From a virus (lineage: Duplodnaviria; Heunggongvirae; Uroviricota; Caudoviricetes), in IMG/VR virus record IMGVR_UViG_2778261420_000008: a stretch of 18,723 bases of DNA, one strand, 5' to 3'. This document shows, piece after piece, positions 12,250 through 16,536 of the stretch (the first letter of the stretch is position 1; each line of letters starts with the position of its first letter). Position numbers and translations under genes: made by a program. The notes beneath the pieces were generated by a model. It was not told where the DNA came from, made no database searches, and worked only from the letters and a program-made list of their open reading frames with translations.

Positions 12250-13551
12250 TTAAATCCGAAGTGATGTGACTCTTCCGGTCGGTTTGACAATAGGGAATTG
12301 CTTAACGATGAAATAACCTCCGGCATCATTCGGGTGATCATTGCCAGATTTTTTATCAGGCTCCCCCTTATCATCCCAGACCTGTTGCTCCAGAGATTCG
12401 GCATATACCGGACAACGCTTCACATTAACTTTATAGCGACGCTCACCATTGGCATTGCAGAACATTGCATTCATTGAGTTAACGCGATCTTTTACTGGCG
12501 GGTTCGAGCTGTTCACCACAACGTTAAAACCTGCCTGCTTAAGCTGGGCTATATCCGTCGTACTTGCGTTACTTGATTTTCTGGAATCTCCGGAAGCATC
12601 TGGATAAATATAAATCTCCCTCACTTTCCGGTAATCATGCCCGTCATACAGCCAGAAGCGTTCTTTAATGAGGCGGATCATATCCGGCGTATCGTAGGCA
12701 TTGATGATTTCAGTTACCGCACATGGAAGCCCCAAACGCAGCACATGGACGATTCCCGCCATCTTTCCAACGTTAAAATCCATCCCAATATAAATCGGCT
12801 CCCCTGGCTGCTCCACTTCTTCGCAATTATTCAGTTTCCGGTCAAACTGATGGTAAACAGTACCACTTGTCAGGTTAGTAAACCGTCCTAGAAGATAGGC
12901 TTTAATCAGCTCTGGAGGGTATGATTCAAGAAGTGAAGGAATGTAATCTGCTGGCAGGTTCTTTTCATTATCGAAAGTAGATGCCTGCACCAGACCATAC
13001 AGTGAGGCCAGCTCTGTTTTTTCACGCACGGCTTTAACAAACTGCTCGTAGACAAATTTGAATCCTTCCGGCGTGGTTGTAACGTCAATACCGTTGCGAA
13101 GTCCATCAATCTTATAACGCATACGCGCAATTATCTTGCGCCACGCCGTTCTGGCTTTTTCCTTCGGCAAAATGTCCAGTTCATCCACCAGCGCATTACC
13201 AATTTTGAAACCGACGATCGTTTGTGGCTTCTCCATCGATCTGCAGATAGTGGTTCCCCGATACTGGCGTCCGTAATAAAAGTGAACCTCTTTATTTCCC
13301 TCATTAATTTTTACGTTCAATCCCCAGTCAGCAGCAACTTCTTCCACTGTAGGGTAAAAAATATCGCGAATTTGGGGATACGTTGGCGCAAAATATCCCT
13401 GATTTATACCTGGATGCTCCCAAATCCCCTTGCATATGCCGCCACACCCAACCCATGTTTTGCCCGAGCCAAAACCAGCAATATAGGCTTTAAATTTATG
13501 GGGCATTGAAAGAAATCGCGCCTGAGGCACATTAAGCGTCGGAGAGATCAT
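12250..13551 (-). CDS. terminase large subunit, 433 aa
   Basis: Track ORF 12250..13560. Walker A motif AGFGSGKTW near the N-terminus and a Walker B-like LVDELD. Preferred start is the ATG at 13551 (MISPTLNV...) because AAGGAG lies 8 nt upstream; the track start at 13560 is GTG with no spacing. Overlaps the small terminase by 20 nt. Confidence 0.85.
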   Translation of the reverse strand: MISPTLNVPQARFLSMPHKFKAYIAGFGSGKTWVGCGGICKGIWEHPGINQGYFAPTYPQIRDIFYPTVEEVAADWGLNVKINEGNKEVHFYYGRQYRGTTICRSMEKPQTIVGFKIGNALVDELDILPKEKARTAWRKIIARMRYKIDGLRNGIDVTTTPEGFKFVYEQFVKAVREKTELASLYGLVQASTFDNEKNLPADYIPSLLESYPPELIKAYLLGRFTNLTSGTVYHQFDRKLNNCEEVEQPGEPIYIGMDFNVGKMAGIVHVLRLGLPCAVTEIINAYDTPDMIRLIKERFWLYDGHDYRKVREIYIYPDASGDSRKSSNASTTDIAQLKQAGFNVVVNSSNPPVKDRVNSMNAMFCNANGERRYKVNVKRCPVYAESLEQQVWDDKGEPDKKSGNDHPNDAGGYFIVKQFPIVKPTGRVTSLRI

Positions 13552-14626
13552 CTTCATCACTCCTTAATCTGGCATCAACCACATTAATATTGATCGCCAC
13601 AGGCTGGGGATGTTCATTATCCTCCACCGTTTCGATCTCTTTGCGCAGCTTCTGGTTCTCTATTCTGCGCCGTTCAATTTCCAGTTCCTGTAGCCGCTTA
13701 TCTGCACATAATGCCCCGCCAGCAGAAAGCAAACGCAACAATTCACGCCGGGCGGCAGCCTTATCCTCCAGCAGGATCTCAACACCGTATTTTCCGAGCT
13801 TTGACCCTGCATATAATTGCCGCGCATCCCCATCAAGCAGTGTGGTATCAGCCATATAAAGCTGTCCTGTTCCCTCACCGCAGCACTTCGGGCAATCAGG
13901 ATTGGGTATGGCGTTATCAACAAAGCCGAGGCCTCCATATTCCGGCTCGGGTTTACCATCTCTGGAGGCCTGTGCCGCAGCCTTATCGAATTCTGCAATA
14001 TCACGCCACTGGTAGAGATGATTCTCGCCCCAGCAATAACGGCAGTTAACACGGCGAAATTGTGCCAACTGATTGGGGTCGGCCTGGACAATGGCCATCA
14101 ACTGGCTCACCAGTAAATCCAGGTCTGCGGTATAGCGTTTCTGGTACTGATTGCGGAAGTAGCTGATAGCACGATAAACCCTGGCATTTCTAAGCATACG
14201 GCTGGCGTTGCTGTTAGCTGTCGCACCTTGCCCCTCATAACCAGCCAGTCGGTATGCCTCTGTCGGCTTTTTCCCCTGAGCAACCAACATGGCGAATTTT
14301 GCCTGCTGGTCAGAAATACCGAATTCATCGGGGCAGAACGAAATTTCTTCCGTGTCCCCCTCAATCAGGAGTGCATCGGATACAGCCTTTTTTTTCTGAG
14401 ATTTTCCGTTCTGCCTTTGCGCAGTCTGCGCAGTTTTTTTTCGCGCACTTTTTTGCGCAGTTTTGCGCATTTCTTTCTGCGCATTTTTCGGAGTTTTTTT
14501 GATGTAACGACGGGCTGTTGCGTAGTTCAGTCCCCTTGCTTCACACCATGCCACCGGAGATATACCGGAGCGGGTGTATTCAGCAATATACTCCTGCTGC
14601 AACGCCCCCCAGTCCGGTCTGCTCAT
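13532..14626 (-). CDS. terminase small subunit (N-terminal HTH-like region, central Terminase_2-like motif, C-terminal Cys-rich putative zinc ribbon), 364 aa
   Basis: Track ORF. The central EAYRLAGYEGQGATANSNASRMLRNARVYRAISYF resembles the small-terminase signature I recall; the C-terminal part carries CRYC...CPKCC. Sits immediately upstream of, and overlapping, the large terminase gene. Contains a lysine-rich low-complexity linker encoded by the TGCGCA repeat cluster. Confidence 0.7.
   Translation of the reverse strand: MSRPDWGALQQEYIAEYTRSGISPVAWCEARGLNYATARRYIKKTPKNAQKEMRKTAQKSARKKTAQTAQRQNGKSQKKKAVSDALLIEGDTEEISFCPDEFGISDQQAKFAMLVAQGKKPTEAYRLAGYEGQGATANSNASRMLRNARVYRAISYFRNQYQKRYTADLDLLVSQLMAIVQADPNQLAQFRRVNCRYCWGENHLYQWRDIAEFDKAAAQASRDGKPEPEYGGLGFVDNAIPNPDCPKCCGEGTGQLYMADTTLLDGDARQLYAGSKLGKYGVEILLEDKAAARRELLRLLSAGGALCADKRLQELEIERRRIENQKLRKEIETVEDNEHPQPVAININVVDARLRSDEDDLSDA
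14418..14483. repeat. cluster of six palindromic TGCGCA-type hexamers (five exact, one CGCGCA), each followed by a T-run, inside the small-terminase coding sequence
   Basis: Exact TGCGCA at 14418, 14427, 14454, 14464 and 14478; CGCGCA at 14442; spacings 9 to 15 bp. On the coding strand it encodes the basic linker KNAQKEMRKTAQKSARKKTAQTAQRQ. Confidence 0.8.
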
Positions 14627-14629
14627 CAG

Positions 14630-14881
14630 TTAGTCCTGATTTTTATCCACCCTGAGTAGTTCGCGCAGAGCAAAGGCATCCCCTTTTCTGGCAAGCTTAA
14701 ACAATGCCGCTCGTAACTCGGCTTCACCTTTCGCTCTGCCCTTACGGATGGCCGCATAAAAATCTGTCATTGCTTCCCGATTTTCTTTCAGTCGGTTCAG
14801 ATCAACATCCAGAACGTCAGCGATTTGTTGTGCAGTCATCCGGCACGCTGCCAGAGACTCGACTTTCGAATACGGAATCAT
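14630..14881 (-). CDS. small hypothetical protein, possible HTH DNA-binding / packaging accessory protein, 83 aa
   Basis: Track ORF. GGGGGTG lies 5 nt before the ATG at 14881, and the stop is 3 nt before the small-terminase ATG. The segment MTAQQIADVLDVDLNRLKE looks like a helix-turn-helix. Overlaps the 3-prime end of the upstream gene by 65 nt in another frame. Confidence 0.5.
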   Translation of the reverse strand: MIPYSKVESLAACRMTAQQIADVLDVDLNRLKENREAMTDFYAAIRKGRAKGEAELRAALFKLARKGDAFALRELLRVDKNQD

Positions 14882-15749
14882 TTGTCACCCCCATTGATAT
14901 GCAGGGTGTCTTCTTCCTGTATTTTTCGTGAAGGATTTTTACTGCAGCGTTGTTCCAGGTGACCTGATGGTGAATGCGTTTATGGCTGGCACCCATCAGT
15001 GAGATTTTTACGCACGACGGCGAATACATGACGGAGTAAAAACTTTTAACGTAGGTTCCGGAATCCAGATACAGCTCGGTCATTCCGCCGCTGTTTTTCT
15101 GCGTCTGTTTCTGCCCTAACTGGACAGCACCGATCGTCATAAACAATTCACCACAGCGACCGAGATTCGTGTACGTATTCACATCCTCGTTAATGCGCCC
15201 CATGAATGAGAACGGTCGATCAACCGAACAGATAAAGCTGTTCATTGCCTTGCGTTTCACCCACGAAGCATGGCCGCCATTGTCACCAAGAAAATCCCCG
15301 CCCTGCGACATAGCGATGGAAAGCGCGGGTATTGATTCGTAATACGCCAGCATTTCAGAAAGGATCGCATCCAGTTTCCTTATCGGGAAATAGGCCTGGT
15401 CATAGTTGCGATCCACCCGAAACTGGAACTCGTGATAATCATCATCGAGCTGAATGAAGTATTTACACCCGACCAGTTTTGCCAGGTCGAAACAGGCATT
15501 ACGGGCGTAAAAAATTGAGCGGCGATCACCAAAATTATCGGCTTCGTCAAAACGACTGGCAATATCGGCTTTGGAAAATACCAGCACCTGTTCACCAAAT
15601 TCAGCCATGTACTGATGCCGTGTCTTATCTTCATCATCAACAACGATAAAAATTTTCCCGGTATAGCCAGCACGACGCAACGTCCGGTAAGTCAGAACTT
15701 TGTCCGGTCGCCCGTGAGTCAGAATAAAGGCGCAAAAATCATCACGCAT
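14817..15749 (-). CDS. soluble GT-A-like (family 2-like) glycosyltransferase-like protein, 310 aa; function unknown
   Basis: Track ORF 14817..15773. Preferred start is the ATG at 15749 (MRDDFCAFILTHGRP...), preceded by GGAGGAGGAGGAGGAA. N-terminal FILTHGRPDKV...GKIFIVVDDED and the later KYFIQLDDDY resemble the two acidic motifs of GT-A glycosyltransferases as I recall them. No long hydrophobic segments. May correspond to the K-12 Rac ydaY remnant (recollection). Confidence 0.55.
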   Translation of the reverse strand: MRDDFCAFILTHGRPDKVLTYRTLRRAGYTGKIFIVVDDEDKTRHQYMAEFGEQVLVFSKADIASRFDEADNFGDRRSIFYARNACFDLAKLVGCKYFIQLDDDYHEFQFRVDRNYDQAYFPIRKLDAILSEMLAYYESIPALSIAMSQGGDFLGDNGGHASWVKRKAMNSFICSVDRPFSFMGRINEDVNTYTNLGRCGELFMTIGAVQLGQKQTQKNSGGMTELYLDSGTYVKSFYSVMYSPSCVKISLMGASHKRIHHQVTWNNAAVKILHEKYRKKTPCISMGVTNDSVFESRVSGSVPDDCTTNR

Positions 15750-16536
15750 ATTCCTCCTCCTCCTCCCCGCCATGCATGATCTCCACCATGCGCTGCGTCA
15801 TTCGGACAAATCCATTTTCAATAGCCTGCTGATAATCAATGATCACCAGCGCCGACTCCTCGAAAAGGCACTGAATTTCAGCGGGGGCATGAGCGTAATA
15901 GTCCGCAATTCTGCTGAAATTAAACACTGTGTGACGTTCTGCCGCACACAGGAGGAATTTCTCAATATCAGGATCAAGGGACGCCGAACGTATCCGGCTG
16001 ATCAGCTCCTGAGTTTTCGTATCGTCGTACAGTTCACTGATATCCGGTTTACCGCCCGACGGCTCATAAACAGGCGTATCAATTTTCGTCGTATACGGCT
16101 CCTCCTCATTTCCTGTACCGGGCAAAACATCCGTCAACAGTTCATCAATTTCTGTCGGGATGAAGCCTGTCAGGGAGACATCAAAATCAGCATTGATTAG
16201 GTCCGACAGCTCCATCCGCAACAGATCTTCATCCCAGCCAGCATTCATCGGCAGGCGATTATCTGCCAGGCGGTACGCCTTTTTCTGCTCATCCGTCAGG
16301 CCAGACAGAACAATGACCGGAACAGAATCCATTTTGAGCATTTCAGCCGCCATAACACGACCGTGACCCGCAATAATTTCGCCCTTTTCGTCAATCAGCA
16401 CCGGATTAGTCCAGCCGAATTGCTTAATACTTTCTACCAGTTGTGCCACCTGCTCAGGGCTGTGCGTCCTGGCGTTGTGCGCATACGGTGACAATTCTTG
16501 TAATGGGCGATAGACTATCTTTAATTTCTCGCTCAT
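15742..16536 (-). CDS. ParB-like nuclease domain (ParB/Srx fold) protein with acidic C-terminal tail, 264 aa
   Basis: Track ORF. N-terminal YRPLQELSPYAHNARTHSPEQVAQLVESIKQFGWTNPVLIDEKGEIIAGHGRVMAA carries the GxGR motif characteristic of the ParB N-terminal domain. AAGG lies 8 nt before the ATG at 16536. C-terminus is GGEEEEEYA. May correspond to K-12 Rac ynaK (recollection). Confidence 0.75.
   Translation of the reverse strand: MSEKLKIVYRPLQELSPYAHNARTHSPEQVAQLVESIKQFGWTNPVLIDEKGEIIAGHGRVMAAEMLKMDSVPVIVLSGLTDEQKKAYRLADNRLPMNAGWDEDLLRMELSDLINADFDVSLTGFIPTEIDELLTDVLPGTGNEEEPYTTKIDTPVYEPSGGKPDISELYDDTKTQELISRIRSASLDPDIEKFLLCAAERHTVFNFSRIADYYAHAPAEIQCLFEESALVIIDYQQAIENGFVRMTQRMVEIMHGGEEEEEYA

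Follow-up and report, generated by a model that had tools for sequence, protein, structure and literature searches.

Does a dense cluster of palindromic hexamers inside a phage small-terminase gene mark a DNA site that the terminase recognizes, or does it simply follow from the peptide encoded there? The question is raised by IMG/VR record IMGVR_UViG_2778261420_000008, a stretch of 18,723 nucleotides (nt) of DNA from a virus of the class Caudoviricetes (the whole stretch is called the window here), whose small-terminase gene, terS, carries such a cluster. An earlier note on this DNA had described five TGCGCA hexamers and one CGCGCA variant within 66 bp, spaced 9-15 bp apart, and had proposed them as a candidate packaging (pac) site within the small-terminase gene. 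The hexamers lie exactly where they had been placed, with TGCGCA at 14418-14423, 14427-14432, 14454-14459, 14464-14469 and 14478-14483, and the CGCGCA variant, which reads TGCGCG on the coding strand, at 14442-14447; start-to-start distances are 9, 15, 12, 10 and 14 bp. The identity of the gene also stands, as the encoded protein, TerS, matches Pfam Terminase_2 (PF03592) at amino acids (aa) 122-316 (E 1.2e-8; 36.1 bits, gathering cut-off 26.1), and the array occupies codons 48-70 of the 364 codons of terS.

The total number of TGCGCA hexamers in the 18.7-kb window is unremarkable, with 11 present against 7.0 expected from shuffled sequences and 17 of the 200 shuffles reaching 11; it is the clustering that is unusual. 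Approximately 0.025 copies of TGCGCA are expected per 66 bp and five are seen, giving a Poisson probability for at least five in 66 bp of ~8e-11, or ~1e-6 when corrected for every window position. The coding-strand sequence of the array is AAT-GCG-CAG ... ATG-CGC-AAA ... ACT-GCG-CAA ... AGT-GCG-CGA ... ACT-GCG-CAG-ACT-GCG-CAA. Five of the sites are in the frame xxT GCG CAx/CGx and encode N-A-Q, T-A-Q, S-A-R, T-A-Q and T-A-Q, and the sixth is in another frame, its A TGC GCA being read as ATG CGC AAA (M-R-K). The runs of T that had been remarked upon after most hexamers are indeed present, with three to nine T within one base 3' of five of the six hexamers on the plus strand; on the coding strand they are A-runs, mostly Lys codons. 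AAA is only modestly preferred over AAG among the Lys codons of the linker (69% vs 57%), so that it is mainly the Lys codons that account for the runs; a role for them in DNA bending is possible but unsupported.

Homologues of terS were gathered from E. coli and Salmonella phages (94% identity), from Klebsiella prophages, with a protein identity of ~38%, and from further phages including those of Yersinia and Providencia. A profile of TerS residues 1-44, which form an extra N-terminal domain (N-domain), added 80 species-level genome loci. Throughout these homologues a dense array of a short word is found at the same place in the gene. A test for conservation of the hexamers at synonymous sites had been named before the analysis, and it was carried out on 77 intact genes, nearly all from different species, that comprised the window gene, five phage records and the species-level loci. 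For each gene, 1000 synonymous versions of its 50-residue linker were generated from the pooled codon usage of these genes. Recoding gave a mean of 0.54 motifs, compared with 5.0 observed, and in any gene at most 2 of the 1000 simulations reached the observed motif count. The entropy of third codon positions is 0.065 bits within the hexamers against 0.95 bits outside them (Mann-Whitney p = 1.3e-5; 17 gap-free species-level genes), and third positions are free to vary in the strongly conserved N-domain. The TGCGCA hexamers of the Arg-type genes defined below are found in all three reading frames: xxT GCG CAx (X-Ala-Gln) accounts for 237, xTG CGC Axx (Leu/Val/Met-Arg) for 67 and TGC GCA (Cys-Ala) for 18; the Klebsiella genes have all three frames inside a single array. 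Comparison of these genes shows that the array is kept by selection acting on the DNA and is not a mere by-product of the linker peptide. The alternative offered by the earlier note, that the repeat only reflects a KTAQ-type linker, is thereby rejected as a sufficient explanation, as the free synonymous variation that it predicted was not found.

The array is closely associated with the part of terS that encodes the N-domain. In 47 of 61 distinct arrays it begins at nt 138 of the gene (1-based), directly after ...ARRYIKK, and it spans ~70 bp with usual spacings of 7, 9, 12, 14 and 16 bp. The array zone contains 27.8 hexamers/kb, compared with 0.71/kb elsewhere (66 loci, 3-kb). When a sample of viral contigs was scanned for clusters of three TGCGCA, 122 were recovered, 71 of which adjoin the N-domain and 13 of which are tandem repeats; no convincing case of a satellite with the array but without the terS N-domain was seen among these 122 clusters, the others being miscellaneous or at contig ends.

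The sequence of the repeated word differs between relatives, and the two classes are separated by a single residue of the N-domain. Genes encoding Arg39 (n = 72) have a mean of 4.8 TGCGCA and ~0 TGCGAA, whereas those encoding Lys39 (n = 14) have 0 TGCGCA and three to seven TGCGAA/TTCGCA; only four Arg-type genes fall below three hexamers, and all four are truncated pseudogenes. Residue 39 is the only N-domain column in which the residues of the TGCGCA and TGCGAA types are disjoint. The Lys-type domains are equally near to Arg-type domains (up to 98%) and to other Lys-type domains, and ~9 changes between Arg and Lys are required on a neighbour-joining tree of the remaining N-domain. Since codons 35-38 and 41-43 are not class-specific, a function of residue 39 itself is favoured, if unproven. 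The Lys-type word, TGCGAA(T), faces both ways in the arrays and frequently takes the form of the palindrome TGCGAATTCGCA; this occurrence in both orientations suggests that duplex DNA is recognized. The encoded peptide also differs by class (TAQ vs SAN), while each DNA motif persists.

Both motif classes are found on three different TerS cores. The TerS of phage pPE4 has 79% protein identity to that of the window over the shared core (~91% DNA) and carries an unrelated N-domain; where the TGCGCA array would be, its gene contains GTTTCCAC/GTGGAAAC repeats instead. In Escherichia phage Rac-SA53, the terS gene has lost the N-domain by deletion (it is annotated 'gpOterS; fusion of two genes by deletion'), and what remains of the array is decaying, with two intact hexamers alongside TTCGCA, TGCGCT and TGCCCA. 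The comparison across cores shows the array to be tied to the N-domain independently of the TerS core.

AlphaFold2 modelling with a 48-sequence alignment places the helices of the N-domain at residues 6-20, 24-31 and 35-42, with predicted local distance difference test (pLDDT) scores of 76-90; residue 39 is position 5 of the predicted helix 3. The N-domain alone has no match above threshold in Pfam, Nu1 included, and one homologue has a sub-threshold match to HTH_29. The linker that follows consists of 17% Ala, 17% Lys and 12% Gln. Within the canonical part of the protein phrog_641 matches aa 105-162, and a sequence search of PDB chains gave only a weak match for TerS, in which aa 108-163 align with the Pam5 small terminase (21di); the same search with the large terminase, TerL, gave no match. 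The profile family is of modest size, with 333 clusters at 50% identity, its profile also covering part of the linker and of the Terminase_2 core; among the matches listed, most begin at residue 1, and the proteins are 45-440 aa long. A search of a set of 5.8 billion proteins with the N-domain profile returned only fragments of 39-77 aa, many of them frameshifted in the A-runs, and these were used for alignment and not for architecture.

Taken together, we consider it likely that the extra N-terminal helix-turn-helix (HTH)-like domain of TerS itself binds the hexamers as clustered sites, and that the hexamers would form the recognition part of a pac site lying in the linker-coding segment of terS. 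The proposal of a candidate pac site has in this way gained a DNA-level constraint and a tie to a domain of TerS, the latter being something that a recognition site for packaging requires. In the mechanism that we envisage, TerS would oligomerize, as a ring, through its Terminase_2 core and display several N-domains on basic tethers of ~55 residues. Each N-domain would read one word of 6-7 bp, with Arg39/Arg40 of helix 3 placed in the major groove at TGCGCA, and the five to six sites in ~70 bp would provide both avidity and uniqueness, the latter because no other such cluster lies nearby. Bound TerS would then recruit or position TerL, the presumed nuclease and motor, for a first cut in the vicinity, and headful packaging would follow, probably along falling window coordinates in the direction of terL and the head genes.

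Several points weigh against this reading. We infer TerS binding, its stoichiometry, the cut by TerL, the headful mode and the direction of packaging from sequence comparison. A Foldseek search of the PDB with the N-domain model gave no significant match (best E 1.0), and although the top of the list consists mostly of HTH proteins (Aca1, sigma region 4, DeoR), none is significant; for this reason the domain is called HTH-like and is unproven as an HTH. The spacings of 7-16 bp have no helical phasing, an irregularity that would fit flexible tethers rather than a rigid dimer. Codon 39 is only ~20 nt from the array, and part of the association between residue and motif may therefore come from linkage. 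The species-level genes share ancestry, so that the p-values are not exact, and the motif was picked after the data had been seen. Among close E. coli relatives, variable columns make up 14% of the hexamers and 29% of the rest of the linker, a difference that is not significant (p = 0.085), and individual hexamers flip between these relatives (TGTGCA, TGCACA), as in the window's own fourth site, TGCGCG. In addition, the isolated DNA-binding domain of SF6 TerS has almost no preference for the repeats of its pac, where recognition has been ascribed to DNA shape and wrapping (PMC4737164); as those repeats are not read base-specifically by the isolated domain, repeats near terS are not automatically binding sites.

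The headful mode in particular we infer from the Terminase_6-type TerL, its Kagunavirus/Jerseyvirus-like relatives and the type of head module. TerL has relatives at 39-52% identity in Kagunavirus/Jerseyvirus-like siphophages, and the authors who described phages of this subfamily, Shashou for example, predicted headful packaging for them; a head module with a Mu F-like protein, a P22-type coat and a DUF4055 portal resembles what pac phages usually have. The evidence from constraint and covariation concerns recognition only and not how ends are formed, and it would also suit a TerS site in a phage with defined ends (cos or direct terminal repeats), where the array would be a cosB-like anchor rather than a headful pac. 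Lambda-like phages use repeated TerS sites of this kind (R1-R3), with covariation of helix and site (PMC4669245). Such an arrangement appears unlikely here, given the Terminase_6N/6C TerL, relatives in a subfamily predicted to package by headful and a head module of pac type, and the window contains neither an HNH gene nor a TerL of cos type.

It is decidedly improbable that the array is an operator for terS or the late operon, acting by autoregulation or as a transcriptional roadblock and unrelated to packaging specificity. The N-domain is fused to TerS in every full-length member of the family, the short matches being frameshifted fragments, and as a module it is swapped among TerS cores only; a second, unrelated family of TerS N-domains has the same layout. 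Operators do typically consist of short repeats, clustered and bound by HTH proteins, and the array lies within the first 210 nt of a gene that is possibly regulated, but there is no case for a dedicated regulator, and what defines TerS is that it binds the DNA of its own phage.

Binding of the hexamers by some other protein, whether a host factor or the ParB-like protein encoded at 15742-16536, seems very improbable, as the type of motif follows residue 39 of TerS. The suggestion comes from the position of this ParB_N-domain gene, which is two genes and 1.1 kb 5' of terS, and from the habit of ParB proteins of binding repeated sites. The ParB-like protein was rejected as the reader because the array persists in relatives from Klebsiella, Yersinia, Providencia and PHB10, which carry lysis genes or unrelated small open reading frames at that place and no ParB-like gene. 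Least probable of all is that the hexamers result from a linker of the KTAQ type, rich in Ala, Lys and Gln, with ordinary codon usage, or that they form a signal in the mRNA: five of the six window sites do encode X-Ala-Gln/Arg, but motifs fall tenfold on recoding, third positions are frozen, sites in three frames encode AQ, LR/VR/MR and CA, the motif of each class is kept over different peptides (TAQ vs SAN), and an RNA signal is unlikely because the motif occurs in both orientations.

A second, unrelated family of TerS N-domains, HTH_50-like in Pfam (...SHTAINKRAKKEGW...), has its own repeat array. It usually consists of three direct 8-mers, often with one inverted copy, ~45-100 nt past the part of the gene that encodes the helix, and 49 of 63 distinct loci contain some 8-mer at least three times. 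Here too the word tracks the helix: GGTTTCCA is found with SHTAINKRAK and GGTAACCA with [NS]HATILKRAN, while other helices of the family pair with GGTTAACA, GGTACGCA, GGTTCGCA and GGTTGCCA. As a comparison of sequences, this family offers a lead towards a portable cassette of reader plus site. The broader proposal, which we hold to be evenly balanced between right and wrong, is that many TerS proteins of temperate phages would carry such a specificity cassette, made up of an HTH domain and its own sites in the tether linker and swapped jointly among cores, in which a single residue (Arg39/Lys39) could switch the word, with the second family obeying the same rule. If this is true, pac sites and classes of packaging specificity would be predictable from sequence alone, as would the prophages and satellites that can mobilize each other's DNA or that of the host.

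Two further features of the arrays were observed. The A7-A9 runs between hexamers (A/T runs at 14433-14441 and 14380-14388 in the window) look prone to frameshifts or sequencing errors; many database entries for the family are fragments of 44-77 aa consisting of the N-domain and a frameshifted linker, and several species-level genes, at least five, are truncated in the array. A TerS type of ~330 aa, found in Klebsiella, Enterobacter, Citrobacter and others, has a second cluster of three TGCGCA ~170-210 bp 3' of the main array (gene nt ~348-398), in a stretch encoding the peptide P[NH]VAQAIAQQQKAS..R; the cluster is absent from the window gene, and where present it may make up a two-part site.

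The features of the terminase genes are listed below, and their surroundings have the gene layout of an intact Rac-type E. coli prophage. Downstream (3') of terS, all on the minus strand, are terL and the genes for a DUF4055 portal, a Mu F-like protein, a DUF6651 scaffold and a P22-type coat; upstream (5') are an 83-aa open reading frame, a TAGT-family glycosyltransferase, a ParB_N protein and trkG. The first 301 bp (5') of this terS were found in 882 of 5,426 complete E. coli genomes, and the N-domain is present in prophages across the Enterobacterales.

Table 1. Terminase genes of the window and the parts of terS discussed in the text.
Feature	Position	Strand	Basis or remark
terS, small terminase, 364 aa	13532..14626	-	phrog_51 'terminase small subunit', E 6e-75; relatives annotated 'terminase small subunit'
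Extra N-terminal domain, aa 1-44 (MSRPDWGALQQEYIAEYTRSGISPVAWCEARGLNYATARRYIKK)	14495..14626	-	Predicted three-helix, helix-turn-helix-like
Codon 39 (CGT, Arg), third (putative recognition) helix	14510..14512	-	Class-separating residue
Lys/Ala/Gln-rich linker, aa 45-100, predicted disordered	14327..14494	-	pLDDT ~51-60; array within first half
Candidate TerS recognition (pac) array	14418..14483	.	Six hexamers with T/A runs between
Canonical Terminase_2 part, ~aa 105-316	13679..14314	-	Includes the usual TerS HTH DNA-binding region, ~aa 105-162
terL, large terminase, 436 aa	12250..13560	-	Pfam Terminase_6N (3.5e-32), Terminase_6C (7.8e-11)

The terS and terL genes overlap by 29 bases (13532-13560) in different frames. 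Among E. coli relatives, two alternative C-terminal tails are found on one TerS N-domain and core, and these presumably match different TerL partners. The 83-aa open reading frame just 5' of terS (14630-14881, minus strand) has no Pfam family and matches residues 145-218 of the 319-residue phrog_309 'terminase small subunit' (E 8e-23). Further upstream, at 14817-16536 on the minus strand, a glycosyltransferase gene of the TET-associated type (PF20691), whose product matches phrog_842 'beta-glucosyl-HMC-alpha-glucosyltransferase' (E 1.5e-103), overlaps the ParB_N-domain gene (ynaK-like) and adjoins trkG. The pairing of glycosyltransferase and ParB_N genes suggests a DNA-modification module of the Rac-type prophage; the examined part of the window showed no gene for a TET protein or a methyltransferase.

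The isolated DNA-binding domains of the TerS proteins of SPP1/SF6, P22 and Sf6 bind DNA weakly and with little sequence preference. The pairing of Arg39 with TGCGCA and of Lys39 with TGCGAA on interchangeable cores is a natural experiment through which the DNA specificity of terminases can be addressed unusually cleanly. Knowing where pac lies and how it is oriented bears on the prediction of lateral and generalized transduction from common prophages, and also on the design of packaging signals in phage-based delivery.

No prior description of TGCGCA or TGCGAAT arrays in terS was found in the open-access literature. The pac site of phage P1 consists of the hexamers TGATCA/G in pacA, which contain GATC and are under the control of Dam methylation, in two blocks that flank the cut, together with an integration host factor (IHF) site. 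The array described here shares with it the placing of repeated hexamers within the small-terminase gene, but there is no GATC in 14418-14483, nor in TGCGCA or TGCGAA, and the likeness to P1 pac that had been drawn earlier is only formal. Phage P22 has one asymmetric pac site of 22 bp within its gene 3, whose product, gp3, is a TerS of a different family. There, as with the candidate site described here, the site is contained in TerS coding sequence, and both phages are temperate, enterobacterial and equipped with a P22-type coat; the difference is that P22 has a single site and not a repeat array.

The nearest known cases are the pac boxes of SPP1 and the R sites of lambda cosB. The pac of SPP1/SF6 (pacL, pacC and pacR; boxes A, B and C) spans the start of terS and has direct repeats, with A/T runs amid G/C steps (PMC4737164). 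SPP1 and the window have in common a Terminase_2 TerS (G1P in SPP1) with repeats around the 5' end of terS. They differ in that the window TerS has an extra N-domain and that its motif is invariant across ~80 species and covaries with one helix residue; this invariance and covariation point to base-specific reading, unlike in SF6.

The winged HTH at the N-terminus of gpNu1 reads the sites R1-R3 of lambda cosB, and lambda, 21 and N15 represent specificity classes, with helix residues and site bases changing together (PMC4669245). There are differences, in that cosB is 5' of terS beside cosN and serves cos cutting whereas the sites here are inside the gene; that the R sites are ~16 bp long, three in number and accompanied by an IHF site whereas those here are 6-7 bp long and number five to nine; and that the TerS is of the gpNu1 family in lambda and here has a Terminase_2 core alongside a Terminase_6-type TerL. 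Both systems combine short repeats with an N-terminal HTH or HTH-like domain of TerS, and here the exchange of Arg39 for Lys39 goes with that of TGCGCA for TGCGAA. Lambda cosB is the closest working counterpart of the array described here.

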